Shown piece by piece: positions 5,329-60,256 of a DNA stretch of 64,000 nucleotides. How positions within the stretch are numbered: position 1 is the first letter of the stretch; each line of letters begins with the position of its first letter. Source of the stretch: Gemmatimonadota bacterium (GTDB lineage: Bacteria > Gemmatimonadota > Gemmatimonadetes > Gemmatimonadales > GWC2-71-9); contig QHUM01000043.1 in NCBI GenBank assembly GCA_003222135.1, forward strand, positions 18,379 to 82,378. Reading direction: 5' to 3'. The translations under genes were made by a program, and so were the position numbers. The notes beneath the pieces were generated by a model that saw only the letters and a list, made by a program, of their open reading frames with translations, was not told the DNA's origin and searched no databases.

Positions 5329-6081
5329 TCAAACTTTGTGATACGCGACGCGCGCCGCTTCTTGTGTGTCGTCCGCGACGTAGATCGCGAAATCGGAGAA
5401 CAGCGCGGGGGCTTCGCGCTGCAACACGCGCAGACACGCGATCGCCATTCGGCGGATCTCGAGCTCCGCGCCCTCGCCGCACCGCAGCTCGAGCATCGTG
5501 CGCCAGGCGCGCGCGTTTCCCGAGACGACGATCTTCACCTCGGTCGCGTTCGGCAGCACGCTGCGCGCCGCCTCACGCGCCATCTTCCGTCGGTGCACCT
5601 TGTCGGTGACCCAGCCGTAGCGCTCCATGAGACCTTCGACCGCGCGCACGTACGCCGCCTGCGCGTCGGCGACCACGCGCTGCCATTCGGCCTCGAGCTG
5701 CTCGTCCCCGATGACCGCGGGCGGCATGACGAACGCCGCGTGCGATTCGTCCACGTAGCGCTGCGACAGCTGTGAGTAGCCGAAGCCCGCCCGGTGGCGC
5801 ACCAGCTCGTGCGAGCAGGAGCGCGAAATCCCCTCGATCAATAGCACGTAGACGGCGTGCTCCAGCACCGAGCCGTGTCCCTGCTTCTTGATGTTCTCGA
5901 GATACTCCGCCGTGCTGCGGTTGGCCGGGTTGTGCTGGCTCATGTAGCAGATCCGACCGGCGAATTCCGCGAGCCGCTCGCCCGGGGAGGAGTCGCCGCG
6001 CCACTGCACGCGCAGGTGGTCGGGCTCGAGGAACTCGGGACGGGCAATCAGCGTGACGTGGGGAGCGCGGAAGATTTCCAT
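5329..6081 (-). CDS. thyX: FAD-dependent thymidylate synthase ThyX
   Basis: GHGSVLEH, ELVRHRAGFGYSQLSQRY (ThyX motif), EAARSVLPNATE, AELEIR. Confidence 0.95.
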   Translation of the reverse strand: MEIFRAPHVTLIARPEFLEPDHLRVQWRGDSSPGERLAEFAGRICYMSQHNPANRSTAEYLENIKKQGHGSVLEHAVYVLLIEGISRSCSHELVRHRAGFGYSQLSQRYVDESHAAFVMPPAVIGDEQLEAEWQRVVADAQAAYVRAVEGLMERYGWVTDKVHRRKMAREAARSVLPNATEVKIVVSGNARAWRTMLELRCGEGAELEIRRMAIACLRVLQREAPALFSDFAIYVADDTQEAARVAYHKV

Positions 6082-13654: not shown

Positions 13655-15676
13655 TCAGTGGATGAAGCTGACCCAGCCCATCTCGTTCGCGACGATCGCG
13701 TGGGTGCCGCTTGCAGTGAACCCGATGTAGCGCGCGTTCCCCCCGGTGCGGACGGAATCACGCAGCGCGCGCGTCGCGCGGTCGAGCACGTACACCTTGC
13801 CGTCCGCCAGCGTGCTCACGTACAGCTGGGCGTTGTCCGGCGTGACGGCGACGTCGAAGGCATTACGGACCCGCCCGCTGCCGATCGCGTACTCGAGGAA
13901 CGTCGCGCTCCCTGATGGCAGGTCGCGCGCCAGGAGCTTGCTGCGCTCGATGTCTGTGGCGAACAGGACGGAGCCGTCGCGCGAAACGGCGACGTTCTGG
14001 ATGCGGGCGCCCGTCACGACATCCGTGTGGACGATCCTGTTGTTGCGCAGATCCACGGTGCGGATCGTTCCCTCGTCTCGCGCCGCGACGTACATACACG
14101 GTGCGAAGGGATGGAAGGCGACGCCCGTGAGGATCATGCCGGCGGTCGGGATCTGCGCCACCACCTGGCCCGTAGCGGTGTCGATCACGTACACGCCATA
14201 GTAATCGGTGAGCGCGTACAGCCGGCTGCCGTCCGGCGACAGGCCGGTCGTGAGGATGCTGCCTTCCGGCACGGTGGCAGTGCCGAACGCCTGATTGGTC
14301 GCCACGTTGATAAACGTGACGGTGCCCGCGTCCTGGTCGCTCACGTACGCCGTCCGGCCGTCGGGGCTCATGCGGACCTGCGACGGCAGGTCCCCTACCG
14401 GGAACGGCGCCGAGAACGTGGTCGAGGGGAGGTCGGCGCGCACCGCGGAGGCGGCATGCGCCTGAGTGACATAGACCACACCCGACGGCGACACGGCGAC
14501 GGCGAACGGCGTACCGTCCAGGGCCACCGAGTCCACCGACGCGAGGCCGGGATGGCCGAGCCCTCTCGGGGCCGTGCCGACGGGGGGTCGCAGGCACACG
14601 GGTGACCCCGCGTACGGATCCTCATACACGAAGTCCACCCACCCCATCTCGTTGGCGATGACGGCGTGCGTCCCCGTCCGGCTGAAGCCGATGTACCGGG
14701 CGCTCCCTCCGGTCATGATGGAGTCGAGCACGGCGCGCGTCGCCCGATCGAGCACGTACACCTTGCCGTCCGCCAACGTGCTCACGTACACCTGGGTGTT
14801 GTCGGGCGTGACGGCCACGTCGAACGCGTTGCGGACTCGCCCGCTCCCGATGGCGTACTCGAGGAAGGCCGAGCCCTGCGCCGTGAGGTCGCGCACCAGC
14901 AGCTTGCTGCGCTGGATGTCCGTCGCGAACAGCTGCCCGCCGTCCAAAGAGACGGCCACGTTCTGGATCCGGGCGCCGGGCACGGTGTCCGTGTGGATGA
15001 CGCTGTCGTTGCGCAGATCCACCGTTCGGATCGTCCCTTCGTCGCGCGCCGCGATGTACATGCAGGGCGCGAACGGATGGAACGCCACGCCCGTGAGCAG
15101 GCGTCCCGTGGCGCTGCCGGGAATCGAATCGATTACCTGGCGCGTGGCGGTGTTGATGACGTACACGCCGAAGTAATCGGTCAGCGCGTAGAGGCGGTCG
15201 CCTTCCGGCGACAGCCCGAGCGTGAGGATACTGCCGGCCGGCACGGGGATGGCCGCGACCGCCTGGTTGGTCGCCACGTCGACGAGCGTCACCGTGTGCG
15301 AGTCTTGGTTGCCCACGTACGCCGTCTTGCCGTTGGGATGGATGCGAACCTGCGACGGGAGGTCCCCGACGGCGAACGATGTCGAGAGCATGGTGGACGG
15401 GAGGTCGGCGCGCACCGCAGATCCCGCGAGGCCTTGCGTGACGTAGACGACGCCCTTCGCTGACACCGCGACCGCGAAGGGCATGCCCGCAAGGGGCATG
15501 GTCGTGTGGCCGGTGAGAGCGGGGTGGCCGCGGCCGGTCGGCGCGGCGCCCACGGGTGGCTGCTCGCAGCGCGCCCAGGACGCGAGCAAGGACGTGAACT
15601 GGTCGTTCGCTGTCGGCGAGTTGCAGGCGGCGAGGACGAGGGAAGGCACACCCACTAAGGCCACACGACGAAGCAT
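13655..15676 (-). CDS. Lipoprotein with two tandem YVTN/YncE-type beta-propeller domains
   Basis: Signal peptide MLRRVALVGVPSLVLAAC (lipobox). Two units of about 324 aa, each starting C..PPVG.AP.G.GHP and ending ANEMGWV.F. Confidence 0.85.
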   Translation of the reverse strand: MLRRVALVGVPSLVLAACNSPTANDQFTSLLASWARCEQPPVGAAPTGRGHPALTGHTTMPLAGMPFAVAVSAKGVVYVTQGLAGSAVRADLPSTMLSTSFAVGDLPSQVRIHPNGKTAYVGNQDSHTVTLVDVATNQAVAAIPVPAGSILTLGLSPEGDRLYALTDYFGVYVINTATRQVIDSIPGSATGRLLTGVAFHPFAPCMYIAARDEGTIRTVDLRNDSVIHTDTVPGARIQNVAVSLDGGQLFATDIQRSKLLVRDLTAQGSAFLEYAIGSGRVRNAFDVAVTPDNTQVYVSTLADGKVYVLDRATRAVLDSIMTGGSARYIGFSRTGTHAVIANEMGWVDFVYEDPYAGSPVCLRPPVGTAPRGLGHPGLASVDSVALDGTPFAVAVSPSGVVYVTQAHAASAVRADLPSTTFSAPFPVGDLPSQVRMSPDGRTAYVSDQDAGTVTFINVATNQAFGTATVPEGSILTTGLSPDGSRLYALTDYYGVYVIDTATGQVVAQIPTAGMILTGVAFHPFAPCMYVAARDEGTIRTVDLRNNRIVHTDVVTGARIQNVAVSRDGSVLFATDIERSKLLARDLPSGSATFLEYAIGSGRVRNAFDVAVTPDNAQLYVSTLADGKVYVLDRATRALRDSVRTGGNARYIGFTASGTHAIVANEMGWVSFIH

Positions 15677-15763
15677 GTTACAATTTGTCCTGCGGTGGGG
15701 CGTCACGAGAAGGACGGCGAGCCAGGAGTCATGTGGCGTGCGCGCAACAGACGAGACGTCGCG

Positions 15764-17179
15764 TTACCGGACTAGATCGACCCAGCCAGCCTCGTTGGCA
15801 ATCAGCGCGGTCCGCCCGCTGGCATCGAAGGCGATGCGACGCGGCTTGCCGCCCGTGCGTAGACTGCCGTAGACACGCAGTGTGGGGCGGTCGATCTGCA
15901 CAACCCGCCCTGCGAACAGCAAGCCCACGTATATCACCGCCTCGTCGGGGCTGACCGCCAGACTCAGCGCTGCGGTGCCGAATTGCACCCTCGCGAGTGG
16001 GCGACCGGTCGGCAGGTGGATGGCGTCGAGCCACCCCGCCTCATTGGCGGCGTACAGCGTCAGGCCGTCGGCCGACACGGCCACATCCTGTGCCACACCA
16101 CCTACTGTGAACCGACGGGTTATCTGCAGGGTCCGTGTGTCTACCTCGAGGATGAGCCCCACCTTCCATGTGGGGACATAGACCCAGCGACCGGATGGGT
16201 GCACGGCGAGCCCCGTGCACACCTGGGCGACCGGCATGGACGCTACCACGCGTCCCGCGTCGATCGAGATCGCGCACAGCCGATCCAGGTTGGTCACGCT
16301 GTACAGCTTGCGACCGTCGGGCGAGAGCGCCGCGCCGAGCGGGTGTCCCGGGACGGGAATGGTCCCGGTCTGCCGGGTATGGGAGAGGTCGATGACCGCG
16401 ACCTCTTCCGCGAACTGATTAGTGACATACGCTACGCGGCTCGACGAGCTCAAGACGATTGCCGTGGGAGCGCTTCCCGTGGCGATGGAGCCGGTGACGC
16501 GGAACGGTGCGAGCGCGAGGCACTCGACTGCCGCTGCGTGCAGGCGCGTGAGATAGGCCGTGCCGTCCGCCGCGATAGCCACGTCGAATGGGCTGCCGCC
16601 GACGGGCAGCCGCTCCGAGAGAACGGCGGCGGGATGCCCGGGCCGAGCGCGCCGCGGTTCTGCCCATCCGGGCTCGCACCGCGCCCAGCCGAGCCGTTCC
16701 CGCGCCGCTGCTGCATCGGCCCCAGCGGAGGCGCGGGCCTGCGCCCCGGCGCGCGGCCGAGGCGTCGAGAAGGGATCCCGACACCGTTCGCGAAATCGCG
16801 CCAGCAGCGCCGCGAGCCCGGCGCGCCGGACCTGGGACCAGCGTAATCCGGTCACCCGCTGCACCAGGCGGTATGCCACCGCCGGATCCAGCTGCTCGCG
16901 CCGCGCCAGCTCGAGTAGGGAGCGGTCGCCCGCTTCCGCTTCGAGCATCCAGTACAGGACCCGAGCCCATCCAGCCAGCTGCTCGAGCGGGGGAAGGCCG
17001 TCGCGCCGCAAGCCGCGGGCGAGTTGATGGCGGTCCCGCAGCCCGACCCAGGCGGCGATCTCGCCAGCCGATGATGCATGCCCGTTGCAGCAGGCGAGGG
17101 CACTCACCACGGCTCGGCTCGTGGCTGACAGCGGCGGCAACGCCGTCTGGAGCACGTTGGTGAGGCGCAGCGGGGGCAT
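15764..17179 (-). CDS. AraC-like HTH fused to a C-terminal YVTN/YncE beta-propeller
   Basis: N-terminal EIAAWVG..RHQLARGL..G...R.....SLLELA...DP...RLVQRVTG fits the AraC two-HTH spacing. Then a low-complexity linker and a propeller, GHP..PFDVA...IANEAGWV. No signal peptide. Confidence 0.7.
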   Translation of the reverse strand: MPPLRLTNVLQTALPPLSATSRAVVSALACCNGHASSAGEIAAWVGLRDRHQLARGLRRDGLPPLEQLAGWARVLYWMLEAEAGDRSLLELARREQLDPAVAYRLVQRVTGLRWSQVRRAGLAALLARFRERCRDPFSTPRPRAGAQARASAGADAAAARERLGWARCEPGWAEPRRARPGHPAAVLSERLPVGGSPFDVAIAADGTAYLTRLHAAAVECLALAPFRVTGSIATGSAPTAIVLSSSSRVAYVTNQFAEEVAVIDLSHTRQTGTIPVPGHPLGAALSPDGRKLYSVTNLDRLCAISIDAGRVVASMPVAQVCTGLAVHPSGRWVYVPTWKVGLILEVDTRTLQITRRFTVGGVAQDVAVSADGLTLYAANEAGWLDAIHLPTGRPLARVQFGTAALSLAVSPDEAVIYVGLLFAGRVVQIDRPTLRVYGSLRTGGKPRRIAFDASGRTALIANEAGWVDLVR

Positions 17180-17188
17180 CGATCAGTC

Positions 17189-17223
17189 CTTGCAGCCTGG
17201 TGTCAGAGCCAACGGGCTGCAAG
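17189..17223. promoter_or_regulatory. Inverted repeat CTTGCAGCC-N17-GGCTGCAAG, candidate operator
   Basis: Perfect 9-bp arms, 9 nt upstream of the HTH-propeller start codon. No U-tract on either side. Confidence 0.45.
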
Positions 17224-17259
17224 AAGTGCACCCGAACTTACGAAATGGCAAGACCCGTC

Positions 17260-60066: not shown

Positions 60067-60256
60067 CCCGCCTCGAGCCCCGGTTCCCCTGACATTGTGA
60101 CGTCTGGCGCGCCGCCGCACTCAACGATTGACAACCCGCATCTCCTTTCGCTTCTTCCCCACTCACTCGTCCGCAACGACTCCACGGGATCAACCGCCGC
60201 CGCGTCTCGACAAGCGTCGCTATGAACAGGAGGGGCGCCACGCGGCCGGAGGGCAC

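Follow-up and report, generated by a model that had tools for sequence, protein, structure and literature searches.

A conserved fusion of a helix-turn-helix-like domain and a YVTN β-propeller as a candidate one-component regulator of neighbouring lipoprotein genes in Gemmatimonadales

Very few members of the Gemmatimonadota, a phylum abundant in soil, have been cultured, and hardly any of their regulators have been studied. In a 64,000-nucleotide stretch of a Gemmatimonadota genome (assembly GCA_003222135.1, contig QHUM01000043.1, positions 18,379 to 82,378 of the forward strand; hereafter, the window), one gene encodes a 471-residue protein in which a small helical N-terminal domain is followed by a complete YVTN-type β-propeller, and the question raised by this locus is what such a combination might be for. 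A first-pass annotation, made from the sequence alone, had read the protein as an AraC-like helix-turn-helix (HTH) domain in an unusual N-terminal position, joined by an Ala/Arg/Pro linker to a captured propeller that would serve as the cytoplasmic sensor of a one-component regulator. Here, we followed up this proposal through profile searches, structure prediction, gene neighbourhoods and the comparison of intergenic DNA across related genomes. With moderate confidence, we read the fusion as a cytoplasmic one-component regulator of the lipoprotein gene beside it, confined almost entirely to Gemmatimonadales in the data searched.

An old fusion and a larger family of small proteins

The first residues of the protein, MPPL, are invariant across the 32 full-length homologues in the family alignment, which supports the assigned start of the open reading frame (ORF), and the identical 471-residue protein is found on 12 public contigs. 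Its AlphaFold model, built with that 32-sequence alignment (mean predicted local distance difference test score (pLDDT) of 87.8, predicted template modelling score of 0.81; a single-sequence model was poor, at a pLDDT of 37), falls into three parts: an all-helical domain (residues 1–135), a linker (136–184) and a propeller (185–471). From Pfam, NCBIfam and the model together, two domains only are seen, neither of them a kinase or a receiver.

A search of 5.8 billion proteins returned 442 relatives of the fusion, more than 100 of which span 100% of the query at 52–90% identity, with the N-terminal domain conserved at least as well as the propeller among full-length homologues. Where these proteins carry public names, they are called ‘YncE family protein’, ‘YVTN family beta-propeller protein’ or ‘hypothetical’. 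When a single genome of each species was scanned with alignment A2, which favours fusion-type orthologues, 31 fusion loci were located; 29 come from metagenome-assembled genomes labelled Gemmatimonadales, Gemmatimonadota or Gemmatimonadetes, and the two exceptions are one genome binned as Acidobacteria and one ‘uncultured bacterium’. With the same architecture in more than 100 full-length homologues and in the genomes of 31 species, the fusion is real and old, and not the read-through artefact that the first-pass annotation had named as a possible refutation.

The N-terminal domain belongs to a much wider family, which includes hundreds of stand-alone proteins of about 150 residues. Its profile, compared with 1.84 billion representative sequences, matched 573 clusters (at 50% identity) with E ≤ 1e-3, of which 376 reach E ≤ 1e-10. 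Proteins of 140–180 residues made of the domain and a short tail account for many of these clusters. Only two architectures were seen, the domain alone and the domain with a propeller, and the window holds a single copy. The stand-alone proteins that we looked up were unnamed or called ‘hypothetical protein’ and had no Pfam family, a PHROGs search gave no match, and no account of the family appeared in the literature searched. Three domain-only genes could be placed: one directly upstream of a phosphoesterase gene (L011, 6001–6441), one directly upstream of a TonB-dependent receptor gene (L013, 4279–4716) and one among housekeeping genes. By gene order, domain-only members sit before varied genes, as local regulators do.

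Paralogous lipoprotein genes flank the fusion gene

In the window, the fusion gene stands between a gamma-glutamyltranspeptidase (GGT) gene and the gene of a lipoprotein with two tandem propellers (Table 1), an order kept in the 89% relative L009. The lipoprotein most likely starts at ATG 15676 (MLRRVALVGVPSLVLAAC...), which we prefer because a GTG at 15706 would overlap the conserved DNA box described below. Each of its propellers is 34–35% identical to that of the fusion over about 320–340 residues. This pairing is nearly universal: at 28 of 30 informative loci, the fusion gene has as its direct same-strand neighbours one or two genes that encode paralogous propellers. A lipoprotein signal peptide opens almost all of the flanking proteins, often with Ig-like repeats after it, and is never found in the fusions. 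Scored with the fusion propellers’ own profile, fusion propellers reach 260–484 bits and those of the neighbours about 30–270, from which we conclude that an old duplication left two distinct propeller groups. The captured propeller proposed at first is not supported: the propeller of the fusion is an old paralogue of the adjacent lipoprotein propellers (35% identity) rather than a domain captured recently.

The wider surroundings take two forms. At 24 of the 31 loci, the order is lptB–rpoN–glycosyltransferase–fusion–lipoproteins, continued by a methyltransferase gene in at least 11, and in the second form (the window, L014, L015, L016 and L039) the pair lies between an isocitrate-dehydrogenase-like gene, with or without the GGT gene, and a thiolase gene. 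The lipoprotein gene begins 15 nucleotides (nt) after the fusion stop codon in L029, and the first neighbour 9 nt after it in L023, arrangements that look like operons. Two genomes carry tandem pairs of fusion genes (L017, 3974–6958; L031, 2605–5386), followed by a lipoprotein-propeller gene with a box.

A conserved box precedes the lipoprotein genes

Past the stop codon of the fusion, the intergenic DNA in front of the lipoprotein-propeller genes contains a conserved box, TATGAC-N3-TGGnGCG-N7-TTGC, of which TTATGACGTTTGGGGCGAATGCCCTTGCCAG is an example. We scanned ±4 kb around the fusion loci, 483,200 positions in total, with a 31-nt matrix built from 22 sites in genomes other than that of the window. 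At a score threshold of ≥10 this gave 31 hits, 29 of which lie in the sense orientation just upstream of lipoprotein-propeller genes, including second lipoprotein genes (L021, L023, L027, L037 and L038) and, in L042, one located upstream of the fusion; another of the hits is an inverted partner site in L032. None of the hits precedes a fusion gene. Of the 28 genomes in which a lipoprotein-propeller gene adjoins the fusion, 24 contain the box, and the version in the window (ACATGACTCCTGGCTCGCCGTCCTTCTCGTG) ranks second among 127,940 window positions with the matrix made from other genomes.

The two upstream blocks of the box lie about one helical turn apart and abut the TTGC hexamer, which resembles a −35 element and is followed 16–18 nt later by a weak −10-like hexamer. 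Activators such as AraC and MarA use this geometry, a bipartite site abutting the −35 element, and a conserved box beside the gene fits a local one-component regulator.

Other identities for the box were considered and set aside. As an RNA hairpin or terminator, its consensus forms no RNA pairs. The start of a small ORF (ATG ACT TTT GGn GCG) does not fit either, since conservation falls on positions 18 and 24, third in their codons, and the first and second codon positions are variable; several copies also run into a stop after 3–9 codons.

The best match to the matrix within the window is a different site, TTGTGACGTCTGGCGCGCCGCCGCACTCAAC (60095–60125, plus strand; score 12.8, rank 1 of 127,940), which is also intergenic. 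About 130 nt downstream of it, an ORF starting at ATG 60257 has an N-terminus like that of twin-arginine translocation substrates (RRESLRLLASLPAAVGAA). This ORF matches nothing in Pfam and might be another gene under the control of the regulator. In L032, the box is palindromic, with two half-sites back to back (5400–5440; CGCCCCAAAAGTCATATGATTTTTGGAGCG), which suggests that two protomers bind there.

The N-terminal domain is very probably an HTH module

The N-terminal domain is predicted to form eight helices (residues 5–13, 19–30, 38–45, 50–59, 65–84, 88–94, 99–110 and 114–133), with pLDDT values of about 85–96. A helix, an HTH, a long linking helix, a second HTH and a final helix make up the layout of AraC-type (MarA/Rob) DNA-binding domains. 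In the model, the helices from 19–30 to 114–133 would fit this seven-helix layout of two HTH motifs within about 100 residues, a fit read from the order of the predicted helices. The confident helices thus appear in double-HTH order, as the first-pass annotation would have expected.

The domain is strongly basic, with an isoelectric point (pI) of 11.1 and a net charge of +8 (family median pI of 10.7). In an alignment of 54 N-terminal domains, R50, P63, W114 and G121 are invariant, and at least 70% of sequences have a basic residue at positions 22, 50, 55, 73, 104, 107, 108 and 118. Within the first putative HTH, the invariant R50 is accompanied by A42 and G46, which hardly vary; in the second, R104 is invariant and position R108 is basic in 81% of sequences. 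From the basic positions in this alignment, conserved arginines are placed on both putative recognition helices.

Further support comes from the relatives, in which weak HTH matches recur at exactly the two putative HTH positions. HTH_IclR matches 8 of 18 individually scanned relatives and exceeds its gathering score in two. HTH_AraC matches fall at residues 39–60 and 85–111, with a best score of 19.6 bits (cutoff 26.6), and those of HTH_IclR, HTH_AraC and HTH_26 cluster at about residues 78–120. HTH_18 scores 16.3 bits at best (cutoff 33.6), and in one relative positions 4–79 of its 80-position model align to residues 44–119 (E of 0.012).

We also compared the domain, using hhalign, with eight AraC-type domains from Escherichia coli (AraC, MarA, SoxS, Rob, RhaS, RhaR, GadW and GadX). 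Residues 62–135 matched the first AraC sub-domain with a probability of 62% (P of 7.7e-5), and the score of 25 exceeded all 150 column-shuffled controls (mean 9–11, maximum 15–20). This null is lenient, and the comparison covered the AraC type as its one class of HTH. Among the top 50 Foldseek matches of the poor single-sequence model there was one helical match, the AraC-type domain of AraT (6swi; 110 columns, probability 0.96, E of 0.24). A test for an internal repeat between the two halves of the domain was negative, and when MarA was used as a seed to enrich the AraC profile, only its close orthologues came back.

Taken together, the helix pattern, the charge, the conserved arginines and the weak HTH matches point to DNA binding, and we read the domain as very probably a DNA-binding module of the HTH type, laid out in tandem as in AraC. 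That it belongs to the AraC family is not established: the curated cutoffs of the AraC/XylS profiles (PF12833 and PF00165) were reached neither in the window protein, for which residues 1–191 were searched, nor in its relatives. Of the initial description, then, the fusion, the propeller and the double-HTH-like helices hold, and the assignment to AraC, with profiles below their cutoffs and hhalign probabilities of 23–62%, is unproven.

A YVTN propeller without export signals

The propeller is of the YVTN/YncE-type seven-bladed class, to which the TIGR02276 repeat, PF21783 and COG3391 refer, and the protein is not a YncE orthologue. It scores 51.3 bits against the YVTN repeat model TIGR02276 (cutoff 27.85) and 29 bits against PF02239 (cutoff 25.5), whereas its score of 47.5 bits against the YncE equivalog NF052280 is far under the cutoff of 400. 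Residues 187–470 are modelled as about 28 strands with a pLDDT above 90, forming seven blades, and a Foldseek search with the AlphaFold model returned an archaeal YVTN propeller (1l0q; E of 4.7e-21, 29% identity) as its top match in the PDB, with E. coli YncE (3vgz) at an E of 1e-16.

The linker is disordered as predicted, with a pLDDT below 50 for residues 137–177 that bears out the Ala/Arg/Pro-rich segment described at first, and it is the sole poorly conserved part of the family alignment, varying in length and sequence between homologues. Likewise in agreement with that description, neither a signal peptide, nor a hydrophobic N-terminus, nor a transmembrane segment was found: the highest Kyte–Doolittle hydropathy, averaged over 19 residues, is 1.5 anywhere in the protein and no more than 1.2 within its first 78 residues. 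Because there is no signal peptide or transmembrane helix, both the propeller and the N-terminal domain are expected to be cytoplasmic.

Weighing the evidence for a local regulator

The charge, the arginines, the helix pattern and the conserved box all fit the one-component regulator first proposed, minus its AraC label. In such a regulator, the basic double-HTH-like module would read the bipartite TATGAC-N3-TGGnGCG, whose two blocks, one helical turn apart, would suit two HTHs in adjacent major grooves. As the box abuts the −35-like TTGC hexamer before the neighbouring lipoprotein-propeller gene or genes, the fusion would activate, or less likely repress, these genes from it, with the propeller acting as an input domain tethered by the disordered linker. 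Because the propellers are old paralogues, the sensor inside and the lipoprotein outside may recognize related ligands.

Several points weigh against this account. The fusion lacks a flanking propeller gene in two genomes (L018 and L030), and in four others (L016, L019, L029 and L035) the neighbour has no detectable box. The version of the box in the clade of the window is degenerate, scoring 10.5 compared with 27–41 elsewhere. The matrix recovers its own training sites, such that the real tests are its specificity and the held-out hits (the window, L014, L015 and L027b). Moreover, box and protein are linked through gene neighbourhood only, and the box could serve another factor or a special promoter. 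On the protein side, the N-terminal domain in the window matched nothing in Pfam, in NCBIfam or among PDB sequences up to an E value of 10, and two homologue-built profiles (alignments A2 and A3) found nothing relevant among PDB sequences, their best matches being SpaS, internalin and RecX at E values of 0.5–2. The hhalign probability for the whole domain against the eight AraC-type domains is only 23–27%, the best local alignment sets the second unit of the domain on the first unit of AraC, and Foldseek searches of PDB and BFVD with the whole-protein model returned propellers only. Finally, no ligand is suggested by any result.

Three other explanations were considered alongside the local regulator. 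The N-terminal domain could bind DNA while the box is an alternative-sigma promoter or the site of a different regulator, with the fusion controlling other genes or acting indirectly, which we regard as unlikely. The −35-like TTGC hexamer and weak −10-like element would suit such a promoter, there is no box before the fusion gene itself, and the box resembles a sigma-54 promoter (TGGnGCG ... TTGC) at loci where rpoN lies two genes upstream in 24 of 31 cases. However, as a sigma-54 promoter the box was rejected, with a GG-to-GC distance of 15 nt where sigma-54 promoters have 12 nt. Within ±4 kb it is found only before the lipoprotein-propeller genes that flank the fusion, and no other regulator gene was called beside the pairs, although only a handful of neighbours were identified by name.

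Alternatively, the N-terminal domain could be a helical protein–protein interaction or regulatory module, and the propeller a cytoplasmic scaffold or an enzyme of the lactonase or lyase type. The window domain indeed has no significant HTH family match, and the propeller has sub-threshold matches to Lactonase (20.7 bits, cutoff 21.7) and Vgb_lyase (17 bits, cutoff 50). This is difficult to reconcile with the basic pI and the conserved arginines on both putative recognition helices, with the recurrent HTH matches in relatives and an hhalign score far above those of shuffled controls, with a structural comparison whose one helical match is an AraC-type domain, and with domain-only relatives positioned like local regulators; we consider it quite improbable.

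An exported fusion working outside the cell with its lipoprotein paralogue, its N-terminus being an unusual export or lipidation signal, is very improbable even though propellers of the YVTN/YncE type usually lie outside the cytoplasm, all 32 fusion proteins have L28 and C30, and the propeller is paralogous to those of the lipoproteins, because residues 1–30 hold conserved charge (R22 in at least 90% of fusions, and basic in 76% of the wider family), belong to a folded and conserved helical domain (pLDDT of 69–90) that cleavage at C30 would destroy, are retained in stand-alone members without the Cys, and lie in a stretch of 78 residues with a hydropathy maximum of only 1.2.

The cysteine itself belongs to a lipobox-like L-[AG]-C at residues 28–30, which is invariant in the fusion family, as are N32 and G33 together with L28 and C30 (window positions 17081–17098); C30 is absent from domain-only proteins. 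Considered as a lipidation site, L28-A29-C30 was rejected: it lies inside a confidently folded helix, comes after the conserved R22 and is missing in the domain-only relatives. A second cysteine, in an R-C at residue 133, at the end of the last helix (window 16781–16783), is common across the whole N-terminal domain family. These conserved residues, at 30 and 133, could reflect a redox or metal feature.

Returning to the fusion as a regulator of its neighbours, a bolder version can be put forward tentatively, and we think it rather unlikely to hold in full. The N-terminal domain would represent an unrecognized double-HTH family of hundreds of clusters, found so far almost only in Gemmatimonadota, and the fusion would form an ‘inside-outside mirror’ switch. 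Its cytoplasmic propeller would recognize the ligand of the lipoprotein propellers, or the unexported lipoprotein precursor itself, so that the amount of binder made for the outside would depend on what enters the cytoplasm. Used in this way to sense a ligand for a transcription factor, a YVTN propeller in the cytoplasm would constitute a new class of sensor among one-component systems.

Comparison with known systems

E. coli Rob, of the AraC/XylS family, comes closest in layout, with MarA and SoxS as its domain-only forms. In Rob and, as predicted, in the fusion, an N-terminal double-HTH module of about 110–135 residues precedes a C-terminal effector-binding domain, and small module-only relatives exist in both families. 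The DNA-binding domain of Rob is itself N-terminal, so that the placement at first considered unusual has a precedent. Further, marbox sites are asymmetric, bipartite and adjoin the −35 element, as does the candidate site described here. The fusion differs in that its N-terminal domain has no significant match to PF12833, PF00165 or the sequences of AraC-family structures, its sensor is a seven-bladed propeller rather than the GyrI-like domain of Rob, it has a disordered linker of about 45 residues, and its family is found almost only in Gemmatimonadales.

In the use of a propeller as sensor, the closest systems are the hybrid two-component regulators of Bacteroidota and the one-component regulator BguR, in which a propeller sensor and an HTH output share one polypeptide and genes for nearby surface proteins are controlled; their propellers, set behind a signal peptide and a transmembrane helix, are located in the periplasm, and the HTH, of the AraC or GerE type, is C-terminal (bioRxiv 10.64898/2026.01.10.698779). 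The fusion differs from these regulators in having neither a transmembrane segment nor a signal peptide and in carrying its HTH-like domain at the N-terminus, and from the hybrid two-component regulators also in their use of a phosphorelay. A hydropathy maximum of 1.5 and a polar, disordered linker exclude it from the class of membrane-spanning propeller regulators as a whole (hybrid two-component, BguR and ToxR/CadC-like).

The propeller shares its seven-bladed YVTN fold with YncE (3vgz) and the archaeal S-layer propeller (1l0q), both of which are exported and have no DNA-binding module. A parallel in principle is offered by LacI/GalR regulators, whose cytoplasmic sensor domain shares fold and ancestry with the periplasmic sugar-binding proteins. 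The folds and the DNA-binding domains differ, and in the case of the fusion the paralogous pair is encoded side by side.

The one-component switch itself is of a known kind, and it is most likely the combination of an unannotated HTH-like domain with a cytoplasmic propeller that constitutes a form not described before. If our reading is correct, an unannotated family of about 570 representative clusters (50% identity, E ≤ 1e-3), made up of domain-only proteins and propeller fusions, would gain a function, and β-propellers would be counted among the sensor domains that one-component regulators use in the cytoplasm. It would also provide a first handle on the function of the propeller lipoproteins that are widespread in this phylum, and a ready test case in the form of a single protein, a delimited 31-bp box and the target gene next to it. 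Should it be wrong, there is still a conserved, lineage-specific gene pair with a conserved cis element of its own.

Features of the locus and DNA upstream of the fusion gene

The coordinates of the features described here are collected in Table 1.

Table 1. Features of the fusion locus, in window positions, with the basis of each assignment
Feature	Position	Strand	Basis or remark
Two-propeller lipoprotein gene (tandem YVTN propellers), presumed target, downstream of the fusion	13655..15676	−	Profiles; lipobox LAAC
Conserved box, window-clade version ACATGACTCCTGGCTCGCCGTCCTTCTCGTG	15704..15734	−	Between fusion stop and lipoprotein start; candidate operator and −35
Whole fusion gene, 471 residues (P0001)	15764..17179	−	ATG at 17179, TAA at 15766–15764
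YVTN-type seven-bladed β-propeller, residues 185–471, presumed sensor	15767..16627	−	Profiles, model, Foldseek
Ala/Arg/Pro-rich disordered linker, residues 136–184	16628..16774	−	Low pLDDT, alignment variability, hydropathy
N-terminal domain, residues 1–135	16775..17179	−	Predicted structure; no family annotation; also stand-alone proteins of ~150 residues
Putative HTH 2, residues 88–110 (helices 88–94, 99–110)	16850..16918	−	Model, conservation, HTH matches in relatives, hhalign
Putative HTH 1, residues 38–59 (helices 38–45, 50–59)	17003..17068	−	Model, conservation, weak HTH_AraC matches in relatives
9-bp inverted repeat CTTGCAGCC-N17-GGCTGCAAG	17189..17223	−	Present, not conserved
Sigma-54-like GG-N10-GC motif GGTGCACTTCTTGCA	17218..17232	−	39 nt upstream of fusion start codon

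The inverted repeat in front of the fusion gene, for which DNA-binding assays had been proposed as for an operator, loses that role on comparison with related genomes, as its right arm carries mutations in L014 and L015, the 93–96% relatives, and is deleted in L010 as well as in L009, the 89% relative. The motif GGTGCACTTCTTGCA, by contrast with its diverging flanks, is perfectly conserved in L009, L010, L014 and L015, and the pattern GGYRCRNNNNTTGCW is unique in the window on both strands. Going by sequence, this GG-N10-GC motif may be a sigma-54-type promoter of the fusion gene. Similar motifs lie upstream of the orthologues in L035 (GGTGCGAGACTTGCA) and L016 (GGCACGTAACATGCG).

In other clades (loci L017–L033), the 130 nt upstream of the fusion contain other boxes, likewise conserved, such as CGTAGTGTAACAGA...ACTTTGCAACGG in about eight loci. 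Another, GGAGCAAAnTGnAAC...GGTATTAAT, precedes the fusion in about nine loci and ends 6–10 nt before the ATG, which suggests a leaderless mRNA.

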